64,000 nt of DNA, taken from NCBI GenBank assembly GCA_050250895.1, contig JBFWNU010000001.1:1672008-1736007 (forward strand). The letters are read 5' to 3'. How positions within the stretch are numbered: the stretch's first letter is position 1; the number at the start of each line of letters is the position of its first letter. The stretch is from Vulcanimicrobiota bacterium (GTDB lineage Bacteria > Vulcanimicrobiota > Xenobia > Xenobiales > JADMJV01). The notes below the pieces were generated by a model. The model did no database searches. It saw only the letters and a list, made by a program, of their open reading frames with translations, and was not told the origin of the DNA. This document shows positions 3,354 to 59,455 of the stretch, piece by piece. The position numbers were made by a program, and so were the translations under genes.

Positions 3354-3710
3354 CCGCAAGAACCACAAGCCCAGGATGGTCAGCGCCACTCCGATGAAGG
3401 CCCTCTGGCTCAGGCCCGGCACCGGCAGGTCATAGCCGGCCGCCCGAGCGGTGTAAACGATGGCCCCAACCCAAAAAAGTGGATAGAGCACCAGGCTGAG
3501 GATGTTCTCGTGGGCGGCTTCGCCCCAGCGACCGGCCGACAGAGCCACGAAAGCGTGACTCATGCCGCAACCCGGGCACTTCAATCCGGTGGTAGCGCGC
3601 AGTACACACACGGTGGCGTCGCCGGGGGCGGGGGTGAGGAAAAACGAGACCACCAGGCAGGCCCATAAAAAGATGGCCGTGGCCGCGGCCTTGTGGCGCG
3701 GGTCGGTCAA
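3336..3710 (-). CDS. DUF2752-family membrane protein
   Basis: CVLRATTGLKCPGCGMSHAF motif between TM helices; TTG start overlapping the Uma2 stop. Confidence 0.75.
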   Translation of the reverse strand: MTDPRHKAAATAIFLWACLVVSFFLTPAPGDATVCVLRATTGLKCPGCGMSHAFVALSAGRWGEAAHENILSLVLYPLFWVGAIVYTARAAGYDLPVPGLSQRAFIGVALTILGLWFLRLGGLW

Positions 3711-4297
3711 TCCTGGTCCGGCACAGGAGCCATCAGGTGGCCCACCACCAGCGCGGGCCCGGGCACTTGAGCCGGGGTGATCTCGTCGTCGGGTTGCCAC
3801 ACCCGACGCAGGCTGTAAGAGGCGCCGAACGGGGCGGTGGTGTCTTTTTGCGGCTGCAGGTGTTGCTCGAGACAACGATCGACCAGGTTGACGATCCAAT
3901 ATTCCGGCACCCCGGCACTGGCGTAGAGGCTGGTCTTCTTGAGGCGATCGTAGGCCAGTGAAGTGAAGGACACCTCGATGACCAGATCGGCGCAGGTCGG
4001 ATGGCGGCGGGCCGCCCCTTGCTGTTCGGGGCGAACGAGGGCGAAGTCTGGCTCGGGCTCGGAGTATTCGCCCACCTGGATGGGTAAGCCGACTCGGACC
4101 AGATGGGTCTGTCCGTAGGCCCGCACCAGCAAGTTATTGGCCAGGGCCACCGAATCACTATGCATTTTATCGTGAGCGCTCAAGGGCAGAACCTCTCCAT
4201 CGATCAACTCCACCCGCTCATGGGGCCCGATCACCCCGACCTCGGCCATCTTGTTGTATTCGTCCACCGTCCAGCGACGCGGTGAGAGTTCTAGCAT
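3707..4297 (-). CDS. Uma2 family endonuclease-like protein
   Basis: RRWTVDEYNKM, RVELIDGE, SEPEPD, LVIEVS, KTSLYASAGVPEYWIVNL. Confidence 0.9.
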   Translation of the reverse strand: MLELSPRRWTVDEYNKMAEVGVIGPHERVELIDGEVLPLSAHDKMHSDSVALANNLLVRAYGQTHLVRVGLPIQVGEYSEPEPDFALVRPEQQGAARRHPTCADLVIEVSFTSLAYDRLKKTSLYASAGVPEYWIVNLVDRCLEQHLQPQKDTTAPFGASYSLRRVWQPDDEITPAQVPGPALVVGHLMAPVPDQD

Positions 4298-50428: not shown

Positions 50429-50899
50429 TTAGTGGGATTTGCTCAGGTCGCCAGGGCGAAACGAGGCCTCGAAGGCCCTGGCCACCGGATTGTATGTTTT
50501 GGCCAGCGGCTCGGGATATTGAAACCAGAGCGTGTCCATCGAGCCCGGGCCGACGAAGGTCTTACGATAGTGGATGGTGCCTTCGTACTTCCACGAAACC
50601 ACAAACCACTTCTTGCCGGTGGCCTGATAGGACGGCTTGCCCGGGAGTTCTTGCAGGGCGCGCTGGTGAGCTTGCTTGAGGGTCAGGTTTTCGAGGTTGT
50701 TGGAGCCGTAGAGCCGAGCCTGAGCCCGCCCGTCGCTCGAAGTCAGGATGCAACCGTCGCCATTGGCCGGCTCTTCGCCCCGAGAAAAGCCTTGAGGTAT
50801 CTTCACCGAAAAGCCGAAGCGGGCGTTGTGATACTTCGTCTCGGCGGCCACCGCCAGGCTCAGCAAGGCCAGCAAGAGCAGAGTGGTCAGCCTGTTCAA
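50429..50899 (-). CDS. Secreted hypothetical protein
   Basis: Sec signal peptide ending AVAA; YHNARFGFSVKIP. Confidence 0.7.
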   Translation of the reverse strand: MNRLTTLLLLALLSLAVAAETKYHNARFGFSVKIPQGFSRGEEPANGDGCILTSSDGRAQARLYGSNNLENLTLKQAHQRALQELPGKPSYQATGKKWFVVSWKYEGTIHYRKTFVGPGSMDTLWFQYPEPLAKTYNPVARAFEASFRPGDLSKSH

Positions 50900-51864
50900 G
50901 ACTCCTCCAGCCAGAGCTCGTCTTTGAGCTCGGTCGCATCGACCTGCTCGAAGGTCGCGCCACCAAAGCGGTTGAGCAGGCCGCGAACCTTCTCGTAGAG
51001 AGGCTTGAGTTTGACCGAGCGCACCTGATAGGTGCCCTGCAACTGCTTGACCACCAGCTCGCGAGCCGAGCGAATTCTTAGCTGAAAGCCCGAACTGTCA
51101 CGGCCGGCGGCCTCGATGCGTTCGAGCAGATCCCCCAGGGCCATTTTCAAGGTGAGGTACTCGGCGGCGTCAGGGTGACCGCCGGAGGAGCCCAGTTCGC
51201 CCACGCTGCTGCGGCCGGTGCGAGTCTTGAGCAGATAGCGGCCCTTGCTCATAGAGAGCTCGTAGTCGGCTTCGGGCTTGACCTCGGCGGCGGCCAGGGG
51301 TTGTCCCAGGGCGGCCGCTTTGGCCAGCCGGTCGGCCTCTTCATTGAGTTCAGTGCCAGCGTGACCCTTGGTCCAGCGCAACTCGACGTTGCTCAGTCCG
51401 GCCCGCCGCAAACGCGACTCTACGCCGTCATAGACGCTCCAGAGATCGCGATTCTTATGGCGTTTGAAGGCCCCGGTGGCGCACTTGATCACGTACTGGC
51501 TATCGCACCAGACCACCACCTGTTTGGCCCTGGCGCCGTGCTCATCGACCAGTTGCCGCAAGGCCTCGAGAGTGGCCAATACGCCGGCGATCTCGGCCCG
51601 GTTGTTGCTGGTGGGCGGCTCTTGCAGGCGAGCCGGGATATGGCCGGCCAGATCCAGTCGATTCTTGCGCTTGGCATCACACAGGATCGAGGCAAAACCG
51701 GTCACTCCGCCGGGATTTTGCTCGGGGGCCGAGCCGTCGGTGTAGACGATCAAGCTGTCGAAGCCGGCCAGGGCTTGCCAGGCATCGCCTTGTTCGGTGC
51801 GGCTGGTGCGAATGGTCTCGAGAACCGAGAGCCATTCGGGTGGGCGAGTCGCGGTGGTGGACAC
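50896..51864 (-). CDS. rnhA: Ribonuclease HI with a second degenerate RNase H-like domain
   Basis: YTDGS, SNNRAE, CDSQY, WTKGHAG..LNEEADRLA; C-terminal AAEY...RELVVKQLQGTYQVR. Confidence 0.75.
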   Translation of the reverse strand: MSTTATRPPEWLSVLETIRTSRTEQGDAWQALAGFDSLIVYTDGSAPEQNPGGVTGFASILCDAKRKNRLDLAGHIPARLQEPPTSNNRAEIAGVLATLEALRQLVDEHGARAKQVVVWCDSQYVIKCATGAFKRHKNRDLWSVYDGVESRLRRAGLSNVELRWTKGHAGTELNEEADRLAKAAALGQPLAAAEVKPEADYELSMSKGRYLLKTRTGRSSVGELGSSGGHPDAAEYLTLKMALGDLLERIEAAGRDSSGFQLRIRSARELVVKQLQGTYQVRSVKLKPLYEKVRGLLNRFGGATFEQVDATELKDELWLEES

Positions 51865-51932
51865 GTTGGCGTCTTCTGGGCTCAGCCGGGAAACCCTTGC
51901 CCTTTCTTTTGTTGATGTGTAATATTGGCAGC

Positions 51933-52520
51933 ATGATTCCGCAGCGTCAGATCCGAGCTGACTACGATAGGGACACCATCGTCGTTTACCAGGCCTACCG
52001 TCCGGCCATCGCCGAGGCTGCCCTGGCCGCGGGTCGCTTCGTGGCTCCGTTCTCTTTTTGCCGGATGACCTGGATCAAGCCCTCGTTTCTCTGGATGATG
52101 GAGCGTTGCGGCTATGCCAGCAAGGCAGGGCAGACACGAGTACTGGCCGTGCGCATCACTCGAACCGGCTGGGAGAAGGCTCTGGCCGCGGCGGTCCTGA
52201 CCCACCCCGGCCCAGGTCGATCGGCCGACCAGTGGCGTCAACAGCTCGAGCAGGCCCCAATTCGCGTCCAGTGGGACCCTGAACGTTCTCTGCGCGGAGC
52301 TAAGCTCAACCATCGCTCCATCCAGGTGGGGATCGGTCGTCAGCTGAGTCAGGAATACGCCAACCATTGGACCGTGTCCATCGAAGATCGGACGCCGCTG
52401 ACCCAGAAGTTGCGCCAGTTGCGGTTAGAGGGTCGCTGGGAGGCGGCTCGCCAGTTGCTGCCTAAAGAGCGACCCTATCCGATTGACGAGGCCGTGGCTC
52501 AGCGCCTGGAGATGTTTTAA
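51933..52520 (+). CDS. DUF4291 family protein
   Basis: IRADYDRDTIVVYQAY, RMTWIKPSFLWMMERCG, VQWDPER; TTGCCC-17-TAATAT-7-ATG. Confidence 0.85.
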   Translation: MIPQRQIRADYDRDTIVVYQAYRPAIAEAALAAGRFVAPFSFCRMTWIKPSFLWMMERCGYASKAGQTRVLAVRITRTGWEKALAAAVLTHPGPGRSADQWRQQLEQAPIRVQWDPERSLRGAKLNHRSIQVGIGRQLSQEYANHWTVSIEDRTPLTQKLRQLRLEGRWEAARQLLPKERPYPIDEAVAQRLEMF

Positions 52521-52577: not shown

Positions 52578-52901
52578 ATGAGAGTAGTGCGCAGATTAGG
52601 AAATGACACCTCGGTCACCGTTGCCCCACCGGGTAGTCACACCCTGGAAGGGGCTATCTATCACGAAGTTCGCCGGCAAAGGCTGAAGCGGCGCTTTGCC
52701 CTGCTGAATGCCAGTTGGGCCGAAGTCGATAGCGATGACGAGTTGGCCCGTCGGGTCTTGCGGACGCAAGGGGAGAGCCCCTGGTCGGACAATGCCAACA
52801 GTGATGGACGACAGGCGGCGTGGGGTGCGGCTGGCTTGCCAGCGCGACATCTCGGTGGACATGGGCCTGGCCCGGTTCGAGGCCAGAGCCCTCGACTTTA
52901 G
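52578..52901 (+). CDS. Small hypothetical protein
   Basis: TAAAGT-6-ATG start; overlaps the PilZ gene, so uncertain. Confidence 0.3.
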   Translation: MRVVRRLGNDTSVTVAPPGSHTLEGAIYHEVRRQRLKRRFALLNASWAEVDSDDELARRVLRTQGESPWSDNANSDGRQAAWGAAGLPARHLGGHGPGPVRGQSPRL

Positions 52902-53481
52902 CTGGGGGGGTGTCCTGCTCGCGAGCGAGCGGGCCTTAGCTCCCGGCTCGACCATTCGCCTCGAGCTGGTCGCCGACCGCCGTCACCTGCCCGCCTCGGC
53001 CTGGGCTGAAGTTCGCTGGTGCGTTCCGACCGAGGGGGCTTTCCTGGTGGGCTGCCAGCTTTACGACAGCACGCAGTATCCCATGGACGACCTGGTGCGT
53101 AGCCTGCTGGTCGAGCAAGAGCTGCCCGGCCGGCGTAGCGACTATCGCTTCCGCACCCGTCTGCCGGCCCGCTTCGGCCTGGGCGGCGCGAGCCGCACTG
53201 GCATGGTCATGGACCTGTCTGCGGGCGGTCTGAGGCTGCTCACGACGCCGCCCCTGGCGGTGGGCCAGAAGCTGCGGCTGAGCATCTCGGCGCCCGGGGA
53301 CCTATCGCGCATTCTGCTGGCTTGCGAGGTGTTGTCGGTGGACGCGAACTTGCACAGCCTGCGAATCACCAGCCTGTCGGCCGGCGATCTGCGCTTGCTC
53401 AGTTTCTATCTGTTGGAACTCTTGCGCAAAGCCCGGCCGGTTCAGCGGCTGGCGGCCAGCATCGCACCGTCACCCAGATAA
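52804..53481 (+). CDS. Tandem PilZ-domain protein
   Basis: RRRGVR...DFSWGG and RRSDYR...DLSAGG (RxxxR and DxSxxG, twice). Confidence 0.85.
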   Translation: MDDRRRGVRLACQRDISVDMGLARFEARALDFSWGGVLLASERALAPGSTIRLELVADRRHLPASAWAEVRWCVPTEGAFLVGCQLYDSTQYPMDDLVRSLLVEQELPGRRSDYRFRTRLPARFGLGGASRTGMVMDLSAGGLRLLTTPPLAVGQKLRLSISAPGDLSRILLACEVLSVDANLHSLRITSLSAGDLRLLSFYLLELLRKARPVQRLAASIAPSPR

Positions 53482-53729
53482 GCGACATTCTGCCAGGGAA
53501 CGAACTGCCGAGGAACCTGGGCATCCTGGGCCACTCCGACCACCAGACCGAACTCGTCGAGATGCAGGATCTCGCCTTCAGAGTCGGGTTTGTAGCCATA
53601 GTTGCTGATAGGGGCGATGGTGGCCAGACGCACCCAGGCCGGGCACTCTTCGACATGCAGCCGGGCCGCGATGGCTTTAGAAACGCCGTTCTTGGGATCA
53701 ACCTTCAGTAGATAGAGTAGTTCTTCCAA
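53442..53729 (-). CDS. Small hypothetical protein following the splicease gene
   Basis: TTG start with GAGGAGG/GAGG upstream, 13 nt after the rSAM stop. Confidence 0.6.
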   Translation of the reverse strand: MEELLYLLKVDPKNGVSKAIAARLHVEECPAWVRLATIAPISNYGYKPDSEGEILHLDEFGLVVGVAQDAQVPRQFVPWQNVAYLGDGAMLAASR

Positions 53730-53742
53730 CCTCTTGTCCTCC

Positions 53743-54969
53743 TCAATTGGATGGCCAGTCGGAGGGCCAGTCGACCTTCTCGAGGCTAAAGCGCATCTCG
53801 TCGTCAGCCGGCCATTCGGCCTCGAGCGGCTCGACCACGAGATCGAACTCGCCGTTGTCAAAGGGCACCCCCGGAGCCTGGTGTTTTACGAAAAATCTCT
53901 CGCGAAGCCCTCTTTCGGCCTGGACCAGCGCCCGATGATGACAATACGGGTTGTTGCCCCGGCGGTCGAAGAAGACATGCGAGGTCCACGAGCAACCCCC
54001 TCGGCACAGCTCGGCGTGATCGCACTCGCGGCAGAATCCCCACAGGTGACTGGTGCCGGCCGGCGTGCCGGCCCCCTGGTTGAAGTTCAGCTCGGGCGTG
54101 CGCCGGATGATGTCAGAGAGCTTTCGCTGGCGAATGTTACCCCCGGTATAGGCCGAGGTCGGTAGAGAGGGGCAGCCTTTGATAGCTCCGTCGGCCTCGA
54201 TGCCCAGGGTGTAAAGGCCGGCCTGGCAACCCATCCACAGGCCGCCGCCGCCGGCGCTACGCAGAATGCGCTCGAAGGGACCGTAGTAGCCGATGTTGTT
54301 ACCGGGCAAAACCAGCACTCCCTCGCGATTGGCTCGGGTCACCACTCGGGCCAGCATGGGATAGAGATGGAGCAGCTCGTAAGGCTGCAACAGAATGTGA
54401 TGGTTGTCGGCAGCGTTGCCCATGGGCACGGTCAGTTGGATCTGCCAGGCGGTGGCCCCGGCCTGTTGGATCTGTCGATAGAGCCGGGGCAATTCGGGAG
54501 CCGACAGCCGGTTGAGCTGAGTATTGCAGCCAAAGGGCAGACCCACGGTCCGAAAGTGCTCCATGGTGCGAAAGCACATTGCCCACGACCCCTCACGACC
54601 GCGCAGGTGGTCATGAGTGGCCTCGAGGCCGTCGACCGAGACCGAGACCCGGGCGATGCCGGCCTCGACCATCTTTTCCGCGGTGCCCCGCGAGATGCCG
54701 AAGCCTCCGGTGGTCATGGTGGCCACCATGCCGTGGTCGTTGATGGCCCGAGCGATCTCGAGCCAATCGCGACGCAAGAAAGCCTCGCCCCCGATCAGGC
54801 TGACCTCGCCGATGCCGGCCTCGGCCATCTGGCGCACCAGATCCAGGGCCTCGGCGGTGGAGAGTTCGTCTTGACGGGCTTCGCCAGCCCGCGAGCCGCA
54901 GTGGCTACAGGCCAGGTTGCATTTGAGGGTGATTTCCCAAACGGCGTAGCTGGTGCGGCGATAGCTCAA
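53743..54969 (-). CDS. Radical SAM/SPASM splicease (PlpX/PcpX-like tyramine-excision enzyme)
   Basis: YRRTSYAVWEITLKCNLACSHCGSRAG, IGGEAFLRRDW, PGNNIGYYGP, GCQAG...IKGCPSL, CRECDHAELCRGGCSWT...NNPYCHHR. Confidence 0.85.
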   Translation of the reverse strand: MSYRRTSYAVWEITLKCNLACSHCGSRAGEARQDELSTAEALDLVRQMAEAGIGEVSLIGGEAFLRRDWLEIARAINDHGMVATMTTGGFGISRGTAEKMVEAGIARVSVSVDGLEATHDHLRGREGSWAMCFRTMEHFRTVGLPFGCNTQLNRLSAPELPRLYRQIQQAGATAWQIQLTVPMGNAADNHHILLQPYELLHLYPMLARVVTRANREGVLVLPGNNIGYYGPFERILRSAGGGGLWMGCQAGLYTLGIEADGAIKGCPSLPTSAYTGGNIRQRKLSDIIRRTPELNFNQGAGTPAGTSHLWGFCRECDHAELCRGGCSWTSHVFFDRRGNNPYCHHRALVQAERGLRERFFVKHQAPGVPFDNGEFDLVVEPLEAEWPADDEMRFSLEKVDWPSDWPSN

Positions 54970-55730
54970 GGCCTGGGCAGGCCGTACATGGGTCGCACGT
55001 GGGGCAACTCTTCACCCGGGATCGGCATGCCGTACATGGGATGAATGCTCGGTTCGGTCGGGCTCGGCACCGGCATGCCATACATCGGCCGCACATCCGG
55101 CGACTGATCGCGGGGCGGCATGGGGGCGCCATACATCGGGGCCACCTCGGGAAAGTCCGGCACCGGCGGCATGGGTGCCCCGTACATCGGAGTGATGTCG
55201 GGCCCCTCGGTGTGGGGAGGGTTGGGCATGCCGTACATTGGCATGACTCCGGGGCCCGGCTCGTTGGGCATGGGAGCACCATACATTGGGCGCACATCCG
55301 GTCCGTGATCGTGGCCCGGGTTGGGCATGCCGTACATGGGCATGACCCCGGGCCCCGCGGGCAGGCGTCCACGCAGTCGCCAGGGCAGGCTGGGCCCGGT
55401 CAGGTCATCGATGCGGCGACGCCAATTGTTTTCAGACTGGCGCACCAGGCGGCGCGATTTGGCCAGCGCTTTCTGCAGGGCCTCGGGATCCTTCCAGCCG
55501 CTGCGCGGCAGCAACGGGCGGTCGGGCAAACTGGGCAGGTCGACCTCGCGCAGGCGGGCGATGGTGGCGCTAATCTTGCTCTGAAACTCGCGCAGGAGAG
55601 CACTCTGATCGGCGTTGAGCCGGGGTACCCTGGGCCCCTCTTCGAGAGCCCTGGTGATGCGCTCCAAAGCTGGGGGACGCGAGGGTTGCAGGGGGCCGGT
55701 CTGGCCGCCGTCGTGGATCGGAAAAGCCAT
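54966..55730 (-). CDS. Putative spliceotide precursor with eight PMYG motifs
   Basis: AGGAG SD; C-terminal half has eight xxPMYG(M/A/L)P units; TTGA overlap with the rSAM start. Confidence 0.85.
   Translation of the reverse strand: MAFPIHDGGQTGPLQPSRPPALERITRALEEGPRVPRLNADQSALLREFQSKISATIARLREVDLPSLPDRPLLPRSGWKDPEALQKALAKSRRLVRQSENNWRRRIDDLTGPSLPWRLRGRLPAGPGVMPMYGMPNPGHDHGPDVRPMYGAPMPNEPGPGVMPMYGMPNPPHTEGPDITPMYGAPMPPVPDFPEVAPMYGAPMPPRDQSPDVRPMYGMPVPSPTEPSIHPMYGMPIPGEELPHVRPMYGLPRP
54972..55345. repeat. Imperfect repeats of roughly 50 bp encoding PMYGxP units
   Basis: Recurring cc(g/a)tacat on the + strand, eight copies. Confidence 0.8.
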
Positions 55731-55765: not shown

Positions 55766-56980
55766 TTAGACCTTCACCGCGGCCAGGCGCTGATGAATCC
55801 CCTCGCGGACCTCGGTCTGGTAACGGTCGCCCAGTCCGGCCTCGCCGGGCTGCCACAGCTTGGCGAAGCGGGGGCGGCAAGCCAGCAGCGCCTCGAGAAA
55901 AGGCTTGAGGGCAGTCCGGAGAGCCTCGACGCGAGCCTGAAAGGCGTCGTTTTGGACCACCTGGAATTCGCTCAAGTCGGTGGTCAGGCCCTCGCCCGAG
56001 ACCAGGCACAACAGGCCTGGGCAACCCAGCTCGAGCGAGCACGGTGAGCTGGGCACGCCGTCGAGCATAAAGCAGACCGAAGCTTTCCCGGTCAGGCTCA
56101 GGGGCAGGGCAAAGGCGGCTCCACAACGGATGGTGTCGCCCAGCGGAGGGTCAAAGGGAAGGTGCAGAAACAGGCTCTGCCACGGCAGCGTCCGCCTCGG
56201 CCAAAACGAGATGTCGGCCCATCCCGTCCGATCCTCTCGAAAGCAGCTCCTTCGATACAGGTGGGCGCTCTCGCGGGTGAAGGGTTTCAGGCTGAACGGA
56301 TAGCTCCAGCCGGGCAGGGGGGCGCTGGGCGGGGCAAAGCCTTCCATCAGATAGTAGGGTCCCGACATGTAGTCGAACCAATTACCTCCGGGTCGGCTGG
56401 TGGGCCACCCTTTCTCGATGTTGCGACCATCCAGTCCGATGGGGATGGTCGAGTAGCGGCCCCGCTCATAGATGGTGGCATGCTCGCTGGCGTAGGACCT
56501 CAGGCCGCCAAGCATCGCCAACAAGCCCCCTCGGCGATGAAGAAAGCGAGCTTGTCCCGAGGTTTGGCCCTGGGTCCATTCGATGGGTCCGGGTCTTAGT
56601 TTCAGAAAGCTGTCACCGAGTTCCCAGCGCAGACCGGGTCCCGAGGCTGCCCGCAAGGCGGCTCCCAGATGACGCGCCGCTGGCGAATTCCAGTCGCGCC
56701 GACCAGCCAGGGCCTCGGCCAGTTCGAGAATCGGGAGCCGTTGATCCGACTCGGGCCTGAACACCGCCTCAGCCCGCCAGGGCGTCAGGCGAAAGCGAAT
56801 CGAACTGGCCTGCAAGCAGTGGGCCACCTGCAGCACTTTGGCCAGATAGAGGCCGGGCTGGGCTAGCTGAAACTGACCCAGGCGCTCGAGGGCCCGGGTC
56901 AATTCGACCGTGAAGACCCCTTCTGACTCGGTCCGGCCAGCCGTACGAGCCTGATCGAGAAAGTCTTCCAGGTCTGCCAT
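55766..56980 (-). CDS. Hypothetical protein
   Basis: 404-aa ORF abutting the GGDEF gene; N-terminal ESEGVFTVELTRALERLGQFQL. Confidence 0.65.
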   Translation of the reverse strand: MADLEDFLDQARTAGRTESEGVFTVELTRALERLGQFQLAQPGLYLAKVLQVAHCLQASSIRFRLTPWRAEAVFRPESDQRLPILELAEALAGRRDWNSPAARHLGAALRAASGPGLRWELGDSFLKLRPGPIEWTQGQTSGQARFLHRRGGLLAMLGGLRSYASEHATIYERGRYSTIPIGLDGRNIEKGWPTSRPGGNWFDYMSGPYYLMEGFAPPSAPLPGWSYPFSLKPFTRESAHLYRRSCFREDRTGWADISFWPRRTLPWQSLFLHLPFDPPLGDTIRCGAAFALPLSLTGKASVCFMLDGVPSSPCSLELGCPGLLCLVSGEGLTTDLSEFQVVQNDAFQARVEALRTALKPFLEALLACRPRFAKLWQPGEAGLGDRYQTEVREGIHQRLAAVKV

Positions 56981-57862
56981 CTAGCGCGGGCGCAGGCTGC
57001 TGGGGGCTTCGGGTCGGGCCGGCTCGTCGAAAGCCGGGGCTACCGTCAGCCGGGCTCGCCCAGTTTTTTTGGACTGGACCACTGCGCCCTCGGCGGCTTG
57101 CCACAATTCGGCCGCATCGCGGCCATCGCTAGGAAAGGCCGCCAGGCCGGTCGAGGCGGTCAGGCCGGGTTGGGCAAAGCGGGCTCGAAAGGCCTTCGTG
57201 AGCTGGTTGGCCAGCTTGCGCCCATTCTTTTTGTCGACCTCGCGCAAGATCAGGCCGAAGCGATCGCCCTCGAGGCGGGCTACCAGGTCGGAGGCGCGCA
57301 CCAGATCGGTGAGAAAGTCGGCCACTTCGTCGAGCAGACGATCGCCCATCTCGCACCCCAGACGACGGTTCACGCTCAGGAAGAGGTCGGGGTCCACCAG
57401 CAACAGGCAGAAGGGGCGGGCCATACGGTCGGCCCAGGCGATCTCTTCCTCGAGGCGGACCAGGAAGAGAGACTCGGAGTAGACCGGCAGCAAGCCCGGG
57501 TCAGGAAGAGCCAGGCTGAGCATCTGGGCCACCGTCTCGACGGCATCGGCCTGGCCCTGGGTGAAGCTGTGCCCCTCGAGATAGAGCGCACCCAGCAACT
57601 GGCCGGCTGGACCGACCAGAGGACACAGCATCACCGTGCCTCGCGCCAGGATGCGGGGACGACGCCCGGTCAATTCATAAGCGGCCAGGCCGGGATCGCG
57701 TCCGGCCAGGACCGGGCGCAATTGTCCGTTGCCGACCGTCAGCACGACCACCTCCGAGGCCTGGGGAACAAGCTCTTGAAGGCAGTCGGTGACAGCCTCG
57801 AAGCGACTGGGCTCGGAGAGGGCCGAGGCCAGCTTCTGGATACAGGCCAGGATCTGTTCCAT
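56981..57862 (-). CDS. GAF plus degenerate GGDEF domain protein
   Basis: LLLVDPDLFLSVN, RASD I-site, ARLEGDRF in place of GGDEF, TASTGLA. Confidence 0.8.
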   Translation of the reverse strand: MEQILACIQKLASALSEPSRFEAVTDCLQELVPQASEVVVLTVGNGQLRPVLAGRDPGLAAYELTGRRPRILARGTVMLCPLVGPAGQLLGALYLEGHSFTQGQADAVETVAQMLSLALPDPGLLPVYSESLFLVRLEEEIAWADRMARPFCLLLVDPDLFLSVNRRLGCEMGDRLLDEVADFLTDLVRASDLVARLEGDRFGLILREVDKKNGRKLANQLTKAFRARFAQPGLTASTGLAAFPSDGRDAAELWQAAEGAVVQSKKTGRARLTVAPAFDEPARPEAPSSLRPR

Positions 57863-57873
57863 CCCTTACAAGG

Positions 57874-58083
57874 TTACCGTCGCGGCCGTCGATGTCCTTC
57901 ACGAGAGCGGCCGAAAGCCGGTCTCAGGGGTGCCCCCATCCAGGCCACCGGCGATCGGCGCGGTTGGAGCGCCCGCCGGTTGAGTTCGGCAAACTGGCTG
58001 GTATGGTAGCGGAGTTCGGGATCATCGGGCACGAAGGTGTCCTCGAGTGGCAAAGTGTCCTCGAATTCGTAATCGTCTTCCAA
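57874..58083 (-). CDS. Small hypothetical protein
   Basis: 69-aa ORF, GGAGG before TTG. Confidence 0.3.
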   Translation of the reverse strand: MEDDYEFEDTLPLEDTFVPDDPELRYHTSQFAELNRRALQPRRSPVAWMGAPLRPAFGRSREGHRRPRR

Positions 58084-58723: not shown

Positions 58724-59455
58724 CTATTGATCCGCCTGGCGGTAACATTGCTCGATGGTCTGCATCCTATCCGACAGGTAAGGGTGCGTGGTCCCTCCTA
58801 CGCCTTGGCGAAGCACCTGGTGCATCGAGGTGAGCACATCGTCGAGGGGCAGACCGGTCCGCTCGGCTTGCTTGCCGGCGTTGCAGTCTGCCTCGAGTTC
58901 GGCCTGGCGTTGCCAGGCGAGGCGGTCGGCCGTGGGAGTGGAGGCTGCCATGTCTCGCAATTGCTTGACGTGACCCAACACGATGTGTCCTTCCTCGTGG
59001 AAGAGTGTGCCAATGATGGCGGTATCCGGCGAGTTCAACCGGGCGGAGGAGATGTAGACGTCGGCTTCGCAGGCCACCGAACTGCCTGAACTGGCAACCA
59101 GGTGATAGTTTGCCCTGGGCATAGAGAGTTGGCCTTCCACCCGGTCGAGAATGCCGGAGAAGTGTTCCCACTCGGGCCCCTGGGTCACAGTCGTCGGGGC
59201 CTGGTCGCAGTAAGGATGGACCGGGCTGGGCGACGAGCATCCCGCCAGCCCGACCAGAGTCGTGGCCGCGGCTCCCAAAGCCAGCAAGCCGGCCCATCGC
59301 GGCCGGGCCGGGGGCGGGGGAGCAAAGTCTTCGGGGGTCTCCCCGAGAGTAGACGACGCAAAGTGGGTGCCCGACCCGGCCGGCCGTGCGGGGGAGCAAG
59401 GCTTGCCTGGAATTCGACCGGTTGCCAGGGGGGTGGTACGAAATTGGATGCTCAT
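58724..59455 (-). CDS. Zinc metallopeptidase-like protein (M48-like) with internal lipobox
   Basis: HEEGH, ELEADC, THPYLSDR; LAGC lipobox after a long N-terminal leader. Confidence 0.7.
   Translation of the reverse strand: MSIQFRTTPLATGRIPGKPCSPARPAGSGTHFASSTLGETPEDFAPPPPARPRWAGLLALGAAATTLVGLAGCSSPSPVHPYCDQAPTTVTQGPEWEHFSGILDRVEGQLSMPRANYHLVASSGSSVACEADVYISSARLNSPDTAIIGTLFHEEGHIVLGHVKQLRDMAASTPTADRLAWQRQAELEADCNAGKQAERTGLPLDDVLTSMHQVLRQGVGGTTHPYLSDRMQTIEQCYRQADQ

Follow-up and report, generated by a model that had tools for sequence, protein, structure and literature searches.

The stretch of DNA analysed here (hereafter the window) comprises 64,000 nucleotides (nt) from a 9.5 Mb genome in 17 contigs that belongs to the lineage Xenobia of the Eremiobacterota, the phylum that NCBI calls Vulcanimicrobiota. 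On its minus strand lies a cassette of three genes, A-X-Z, which encode a precursor protein with eight tandem PMYG units (A), a radical S-adenosylmethionine (SAM)/SPASM enzyme (X) and a small conserved protein (Z), and which very probably constitute a spliceotide system in the Xenobia lineage. To our knowledge, no route to ribosomal alpha-keto-beta-amino acids other than that of the spliceases is known. These residues serve as a pharmacophore of protease inhibitors and as a bio-orthogonal handle.

Gene A begins with an ATG that is preceded by GGAGAA, and its TGA stop codon (54966-54968) overlaps the TTG (54967-54969) that opens X. Translation and motif positions bear out the original prediction on every point of its description of this open reading frame (ORF), namely its 254 residues, its eight PMYG units and its overlap with the radical SAM gene. 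In all eight units the pattern P-x-(V/I)-x-P-M-Y-G-(M/A/L)-P-x-P leads into a variable linker, 4-6 residues long, which gives a unit length of 16-17 residues; the PMYG motifs begin at residues 131, 148, 164, 181, 198, 215, 231 and 247 and are thus 17, 16, 17, 17, 17, 16 and 16 residues apart. All eight tyrosines in residues 127-254 fall inside PMYG, and among 100,000 shuffles of the residues of A, two or more PMYG motifs arose in four and more than two in none. Tandem Repeats Finder detected no tandem array in the DNA of the repeat region, the units have a mean nucleotide identity of 62%, and the codons of the motif differ synonymously (Pro CCC/CCA/CCG, Tyr TAC/TAT, Gly GGC/GGT/GGG). The motif is thus conserved at the level of the peptide, on which selection acts, and is explained neither by recent duplication nor by an artefact of assembly. 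An AlphaFold2 model presents the repeat region as coil, with block means of 41-56 in the predicted local distance difference test (pLDDT). The leader had been described as not resembling Nif11, and this holds: at E<=0.01 no Pfam or NCBIfam family matches A, and no Nif11 domain with a GG-type cleavage site was found.

X also has a TTG start, and its homologues start at the same position, with the consensus MxYRRTSYAVWEIT. Against TIGR04103 (nif11-class peptide radical SAM maturase 3, an equivalog model) it scores 719.9 bits over positions 1-406 of 412, and the next NCBIfam family, TIGR03913, is 320 bits lower at 399.8 bits; the Pfam Radical_SAM family is matched at E 3.6e-21. Over residues 1-405 the protein is 69-72% identical to cyanobacterial enzymes and 69-76% identical to database relatives in general. 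The named relatives are mostly cyanobacterial and owe their names in the sources to TIGR04103, and a relative with 76% identity (P0010) is likewise named by NCBI as a member of that family. Ten cysteines are invariant in a 36-row alignment (A3), three of them in the CxxxCxxC motif (C17, C21 and C24) and seven in the SPASM half (C248, C266, C313, C316, C322, C326 and C343), a set that would fit one radical SAM cluster together with SPASM auxiliary clusters.

A maximum-likelihood tree was calculated from 58 rows, consisting of 41 of the 77 cyanobacterial-type enzymes, 11 enzymes from relatives, the window enzyme and an outgroup of five GDL-type enzymes. X groups with the enzymes of loci L012, L013 and L088 with a support of 96 in the Shimodaira-Hasegawa-like approximate likelihood ratio test (SH-aLRT), and the sister of this clade (SH-aLRT 84) is a group of 40 cyanobacterial enzymes (98). 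The window's class is represented by a basal grade of enzymes, and the 53 rows that include the window stand apart from the GDL-type outgroup with an SH-aLRT of 100. The original prediction had assigned the enzyme to the spliceases and proposed profile searches and phylogeny as a check on this; the TIGR04103 score, the identity to cyanobacterial enzymes and the placement on the splicease side of the tree agree with the assignment and support X as a PlpX-type splicease homologue. The proposal that PMYG is a type of splice site is also supported, since PLYGV (40 occurrences) and PMYGV (39) are the commonest sites in the cyanobacterial Nif11 precursors encoded beside X, and since the units resemble tags that have been tested with PlpXY.

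Matches to TIGR04103 at E<=1e-80 were counted across 301 sampled genomes of the phylum and are present in 23, of which 14 of the window's class score 527-726 bits and nine of another family (f15) score 415-447 bits; the curated cut-off is reached by a single one of the 23 (G090, 725.8 bits). Second splicease-like copies occur in G050 (contig C25), G052 (C4), G068 (C20) and G110 (C336), at 583-638 bits and with a match that ends at about position 385 of 412. No match to Z was found on these four contigs, and the copies may represent another subtype. A public record with a Selenomonadaceae title (L038) carries the same X protein as G052, a genome of the window's family, with the same match scores, and the label of the record is probably wrong.

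The leader of A was examined by comparing a full-length precursor alignment (A1) with a cluster, delimited by BLAST, of small proteins whose genes lie downstream of X in cyanobacteria. These proteins have 46-103 residues and a conserved core, LLPR(S/Q)AWNSQ...LKAKQALD; there is one per locus, and 71 of the 72 members lie 3' of X. They are taken here as PlpY-position proteins because their position matches that of plpY, which excerpts of PMC5995677 place directly downstream of plpX. With hhalign, A1 and the cluster match over 34 columns that correspond to window residues 70-101, with a probability of 92.3% and an E-value of 5.4e-7, compared with 0.3% and 0.18 in a control with reversed Y sequences. 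Residues R76, W79, D81 and L85 are invariant in A1, and AlphaFold2 models leader helices at 76-79 and 82-103, with a mean pLDDT of 81 for residues 81-90 and of 75 for residues 91-100. This Y-like segment had been absent from the original prediction and was found by the profile comparison. The leader of A has no match among the cyanobacterial Nif11 precursors encoded next to X, of which phmmer finds only one (L030), by way of its PMYG core.

Richter et al. (PMC11414181) report that Y activates X, that Y fused to the precursor can stand in for part of the leader, and that PlpY-precursor fusions are active without free Y. The same authors describe non-cyanobacterial pathways without Y, and in the binary RhaA system a leader helix that is structurally and functionally equivalent to Y. 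Given these findings and the match to PlpY-position proteins, A looks like a natural activator-precursor (Y-A) fusion. In loci L010, L011, L127 and L128 (positions 795-1460 in L010), an 82-codon stop-to-stop frame containing LLPRSFW ends in a TAG; after another 9 nt comes the ATG that starts the repeat protein, which in this type has 4-5 ALYG units. This split form is the unfused counterpart of the window leader, and both the fused and the split arrangement occur in the lineage.

Seven homologues of A were obtained in a word-indexed search, all with LPRSGW-x-D-x-x-x-L, with an NWR/NFR motif and with PMYG units in tandem; one of them (P0003) is 82% identical to A and has the same start site. 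A tandem-XYG precursor adjoins X in 11 further related loci with 3 to 10 sites each: three in L013, four in L009 and L019, five in L012, L014 and L016, and ten in L015, L017 and L018, together with four ALYG sites in L010 and five in L011. A profile built from 11 precursors and searched against 1.84 billion representatives at E<=0.001 matched 128 proteins, of which 124 have at least three XYG. The most frequent count is five (49 proteins), 11 proteins have at least eight, and the maxima are 17, in a VYG protein of 1177 residues (P0249), and 24; eight sites are therefore a high number for this tandem-XYG family and not an exceptional one. An (L/F)PRxGW-type motif is present, as a strict pattern, in 40 of the 128. 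The first residue of XYG is usually uniform within one protein and may be M, V, L, R, K or A (e.g. MMMMM, RRRRR, KKKKK, VVVV). Four proteins of 438-513 residues with an LPRSGW leader (L088:1377-2765, P0007, P0255 and P0261) have five PMYG motifs split by non-repeat segments of about 100 residues.

Z, which the original prediction listed as an ORF, is a genuine, conserved gene. Its product has the motifs RLAT-x-AP-x-SN-x-G(Y/W) and VPWQN-x-AYL, and 15 columns are invariant in an alignment of 12 sequences (A2). The AlphaFold2 model (pLDDT 92, predicted template modelling score 0.81) is beta-rich, with six strands and two short helices. No family was found for it in Pfam or NCBIfam, and no signal peptide is predicted. 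Foldseek returned nothing from the PDB at E<=0.001 (best E 0.94), and VIA-align, run against 48,161 chains, gave a best Z-score of 3.1 (root-mean-square deviation 3.6, 55 residues aligned), below the level deemed meaningful; the best entries are de novo SH3-like proteins and Hfq, which are weak matches to small beta-barrels, and PqqD, the identity to be considered for a RiPP recognition element (RRE; RiPP, a peptide made by the ribosome and modified after translation), has no entry among the weak fold matches listed. In the ESM Atlas the matches were all clusters called 'hypothetical protein', and at 0.83-0.84 they stayed under the threshold for a lead; the 140 clusters of Z homologues are all 'hypothetical', some being labelled Myxococcota or Competibacterales.

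In the window, as in each of the 12 extended related loci, the gene is no further than about 1.3 kb from X, either downstream of X (the window, L010-L014, L016 and L019) or divergent and upstream of A (L009, L015, L017 and L018). In the phylum sample, X of the class type and Z were each detected in 14 genomes and both in 13; the exceptions are G108, in which X lies on a 4-kb contig stretch, and G078, which is 75% complete. None of the nine GDL-type genomes in the sample has Z, and a clean hidden Markov model (HMM) of Z finds it within loci L028-L107 only in L038 and L067, which are duplicates of L013 and L012, respectively. Eight metagenome loci were found through Z, and X is immediately upstream in seven of them, two of which are duplicates of the L010 type. 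Precursors with RYG repeats occur in metagenome contigs L123 (four) and L124 (five), both with an FPRTAW leader, and L126 (at least four, the ORF being cut at the contig start). Contig L125 retains Z and the leader remnant of an RYG-type precursor (GFPATGW; 3556-4285), no X was found in it by tblastn, and it looks like a decayed cassette. As judged from its sequence and model, Z is a conserved, small and apparently beta-rich partner that travels with the window-type splicease. Two other identities for it were considered and rejected. A role as second substrate fails because the NYG of the window's Z reads NWG, NFG, NRG or NQG in homologues, and Z is not PlpY, as no Z was found in cyanobacterial loci with phmmer or the clean HMM, and the Y HMM matches Z only at E 0.36.

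The positions of the cassette and of its neighbours are given in Table 1. BLAST searches of the 12 related loci found no match to the 404-residue ORF just upstream of A or to the ORF that overlaps the GAF-GGDEF gene (the GGDEF protein was not itself a query), and only weak matches to the PilZ gene (25% identity) in two of the 12. Both the GAF-GGDEF gene and the convergent PilZ gene, whose 3' end overlaps that of Z by 40 nt, are cyclic di-GMP genes flanking the cassette. The genes for an RNase H domain protein and a DUF4291 protein, approximately 1-2.5 kb past Z, are without relation to the cassette as far as seen. The M48-like gene has an N-terminus that resembles a lipoprotein (LAGC) on inspection only. 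As to public sequencing runs, no RNA run was among those listed, and five DNA runs contain just 7-8% of the words sampled, too little to bear on habitat or expression.

Table 1. Features of the A-X-Z cassette and genes in its neighbourhood (positions in the window)
Feature	Position	Strand	Basis or remark
Precursor gene A, 254 aa, non-Nif11 leader and eight tandem PMYG units	54966..55730	-	translation, homologues
Y-like leader segment of A, residues 70-101 (DRPLLPRSGWKDPEALQKALAKSRRLVRQSEN), presumed activating helix	55428..55523	-	hhalign
Repeat region of A, residues 127-254, eight units	54969..55352	-	motif positions, codons, shuffles
PMYG Tyr codons	55332-55334, 55281-55283, 55233-55235, 55182-55184, 55131-55133, 55080-55082, 55032-55034, 54984-54986	-	
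X, 408 aa, reads (M)SYRRTSYAVWEITLKCNLACSHCGSRAG	53743..54969	-	TIGR04103, Pfam Radical_SAM
CxxxCxxC of X, residues 17-24	54898-54921	-	
Z, 95 aa, TTG start 8 nt after GAGGAGG	53442..53729	-	conserved ORF
Uncharacterised 404-aa ORF	55766-56980	-	abuts GAF-GGDEF gene
GAF-GGDEF gene	56981-57862	-	
ORF overlapping GAF-GGDEF gene	57098-58009	+	
M48-like gene, 243 aa, HEEGH (HExxH) motif	58724-59455	-	Peptidase_M48 20.5 bits, cut-off 20.3, marginal
Tandem-PilZ gene, convergent	52708-53481	+	
DUF4291 protein	51840-52520	+	
RNase H domain protein with long C-terminal extension	50896-51864	-	

In the interpretation that is preferred here, and held with considerable confidence, X would be a PlpX-type tyramine splicease and A its cis-activated substrate with eight sites, the product being tentatively taken to remain an intact multivalent protein. 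Leader residues 70-101 would replace a separate PlpY and dock on X in cis, and X would proceed along the disordered, proline-rich C-terminal half of A. At each P-M-Y-G a tyramine equivalent (C8H9NO, ~135.07 Da) would be excised from the tyrosine and the backbone rejoined, leaving a ketoamide derived from methionine. Some or all of the sites might be spliced, so that a chain could carry up to eight warheads and lose ~1080.5 Da overall, and the product would be a single intact poly-ketoamide polypeptide that inhibits proteases. Tyramine excision at PMYG is proposed because MYG and LYG sites have been spliced experimentally by PlpXY, PcpX and RcsX, as excerpts of PMC10533398, PMC11414181 and PMC11626197 report, and because an 11-residue recognition sequence has been defined and PlpXY tolerates multiplication of the XYG motif (excerpts of PMC5995677). 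An intact product is favoured because no conserved linker cleavage site, signal peptide or processing genes were found, and because L088 and P0007 contain long non-repeat segments.

Several observations weigh against this interpretation. X falls 5 bits short of the curated TIGR04103 cut-off of 725, and its SPASM match in Pfam (21.0 bits, E 4.2e-4) is below the cut-off of 21.5; the TIGR04103 match, at full length, takes in the SPASM region. The tree contains cyanobacterial relatives only, without the characterised spliceases PlpX, PcpX, RhaX and RcsX. The leader match extends over just 34 columns with 26% identity, and the precursor model has low confidence overall (pLDDT 55). Known enzymes also leave potential sites untouched, as the DYG site of RcsA is unmodified (PMC11626197) and the majority of splice tags inserted into FtsZ escaped modification (Table 1 of PMC10533398). 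The preference for an intact product is a leaning that rests on absences, which are weak evidence. We infer the chemistry, including splicing itself, the sites used and their number, cis-activation and activity in the host, as well as the fate and target of the product.

It is also possible, although distinctly less probable, that A is a multi-core RiPP, with a housekeeping enzyme, or a protease whose gene lies elsewhere, cleaving the spliced array at its linkers into about eight exported, proline-rich ketoamide peptides that would act as diffusible inhibitors. The units are near-identical in their 12-residue core and vary only in the linkers (GHDHG, NEPG, PHTEG, PVPDF, PRDQS, SPTE and GEEL), among which, however, no conserved cleavage motif is found. 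A uniform XYG residue within each protein is what would be expected if many copies of one product were wanted, and known spliceotides inhibit serine and cysteine proteases as short peptides (PMC11626197, in excerpt), whereas the PMYG motifs between segments of about 100 non-repeat residues in L088 and P0007 suggest a protein that is kept whole. On inspection, neither a signal peptide nor a double-glycine leader is evident in A. The original prediction had seen no adjacent protease or transporter gene, and the wider comparison is in agreement, as the 12 extended related loci show no conserved protease or exporter next to the cassette; the M48-like gene with its HExxH motif does lie 3 kb upstream of A on the same strand, but BLAST finds no counterpart for it in these loci.

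For Z, a function other than that of a splicease accessory is conceivable but rather unlikely, namely that of a self-protection or product-binding protein that might, for instance, keep the ketoamide polypeptide sequestered or protect a protease of the host. Its variable position would suit a gene that is linked but acts separately, cyanobacterial systems work without it, and it has been retained in L125 despite the loss of X. The protein itself, with no family, fold match or predicted signal peptide, offers no point directly for or against such a function.

An unlikely and more far-reaching reading goes beyond the preferred one in taking the cassette as a distinct architecture, in which the activator is built in, a beta-barrel Z is obligatory, and the product is a disordered protein that is never cut and that acts, with its eight ketoamides (3 to 24 in relatives), as a multivalent protease trap. 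In that case Z might take hold of the proline-rich tags and pass them in succession to the splicease, and the product might act in or on the cell, with the spliced residue (M/L/V or R/K) setting the class of protease. It is more doubtful still that X performs another radical reaction at the YG sites, or uses only one or two of them, so that no eightfold ketoamide product would form. SPASM enzymes carry out varied chemistry (the NCBIfam matches of X include 62 related families whose functions are different), the TIGR04103 cut-off is narrowly missed, and known spliceases convert incompletely and skip some sites (excerpts of PMC11626197); against this stand the approximately 70% identity to a cyanobacterial family whose precursors bear the same P-(M/L)-Y-G-V site, and the conservation of eight motifs as peptide despite synonymous drift. 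That the repeat ORF is a spurious open frame in GC-rich DNA or a decaying remnant can practically be dismissed, for although long chance ORFs are common at 66% GC and several overlap the locus on both strands, 11 further loci show the same architecture beside X, as do metagenomes whose repeats differ, A and the 82%-identical P0003 have a common start site, and the gene is preceded by a ribosome-binding site, is coupled to X by the overlap of stop and start, and varies synonymously in a motif that is itself invariant.

If the preferred interpretation of a multivalent splicease substrate is correct, the locus would resemble a natural version of what has been engineered piecemeal, namely a substrate to which the activator is fused and a chain that bears many splice tags. 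It could be used to learn how many tags per chain one enzyme can process, whether Z improves turnover, and whether multivalent ketoamide proteins occur in nature. That each protein usually keeps to one spliced residue (Met, Leu, Val, Arg or Lys) is a hint of inhibitors adapted to particular classes of protease, and the wider tandem-XYG family would provide a ready panel of natural tags.

Spliceotide pathways outside the cyanobacteria that lack Y have been reported in the 'hundreds' and typed by enzyme phylogeny and precursor identity (PMC11414181), and 939 predicted systems are in print according to excerpts of PMC11414181 and PMC10533398. These were mined by counting YG motifs in ORFs beside radical SAM-SPASM genes (PMC10849128, a review), so that precursors with multiple YG motifs have very probably been seen before. 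In the splicease and spliceotide literature searched, which was available partly as excerpts and did not extend to the catalogue of Scott et al. 2022, no description of tandem-repeat precursors, of this lineage or of a Z-like gene was met.

Among known systems, the Type I cyanobacterial pathways (PlpA/PlpX/PlpY of Pleurocapsa sp. PCC 7319 and PcpAXY of PCC 7327) share with the window an enzyme that is 69-72% identical within the family and sister in the tree, a P-(M/L)-Y-G site context, and a gene order in which the precursor is upstream of X and a small gene is downstream. They differ in that the window precursor lacks a Nif11 leader and has eight sites, compared with 0-4 in the 123 Nif11-type ORFs beside cyanobacterial X. 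The small downstream gene of the window is Z, which is unrelated to Y, the Y-like segment being inside the precursor, and the host belongs to the Eremiobacterota and not to the Cyanobacteriota. The Type II binary systems (RhaX/RhaA, also RasXA, of Rheinheimera aquimaris B26 and RcsXA of R. pleomorphica) resemble the window in having no separate Y protein, and the Y-equivalent leader helix of RhaA (PMC11414181) fits the window leader, a likeness by description and not by sequence. RcsA and RasA, however, have one modified site each (PMC11626197, in excerpt), in contrast to the eight candidate sites in A, and the descriptions, as far as they were available, mention no Z-like gene, which the window has.

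The GDL-motif maturases (TIGR03913) are the second-best family for X and are present in the same phylum (the nine genomes of f15), but X scores 399.8 bits against a cut-off of 591.75, their enzymes of 460-590 residues form the outgroup of the tree, and the window precursor has no GDL motif. In the five GDL-type loci examined of the nine, the enzymes adjoin small peptides with a single PYG site and a GDL motif; the small ORFs of L022-L027 (f15) have one PYG followed by (K/S)(R/G)GDL-x-x-M, e.g. GPIPPYGPAI...SGDLAQM. The closest parallels to the array itself are engineered, as the window units (e.g. PDVRPMYGAPMP and PHVRPMYGLPRP) resemble the PlpXY tags GPIRP(L/G)YGLPI (Table 1 of PMC10533398, in excerpt), PlpXY accepted several XYG motifs (excerpts of PMC5995677), and PlpY fusions were active without free Y (PMC11414181). 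Those are laboratory constructs, from Morinaka 2018, Lakis 2022 and Richter 2023/2024, whereas the window, with its Y-like segment, linker and eight tags, appears to be their natural counterpart. The locus is a further member of the known spliceotide family, a placement that is well supported and not surprising, and Z is most likely the part of the cassette that is new.

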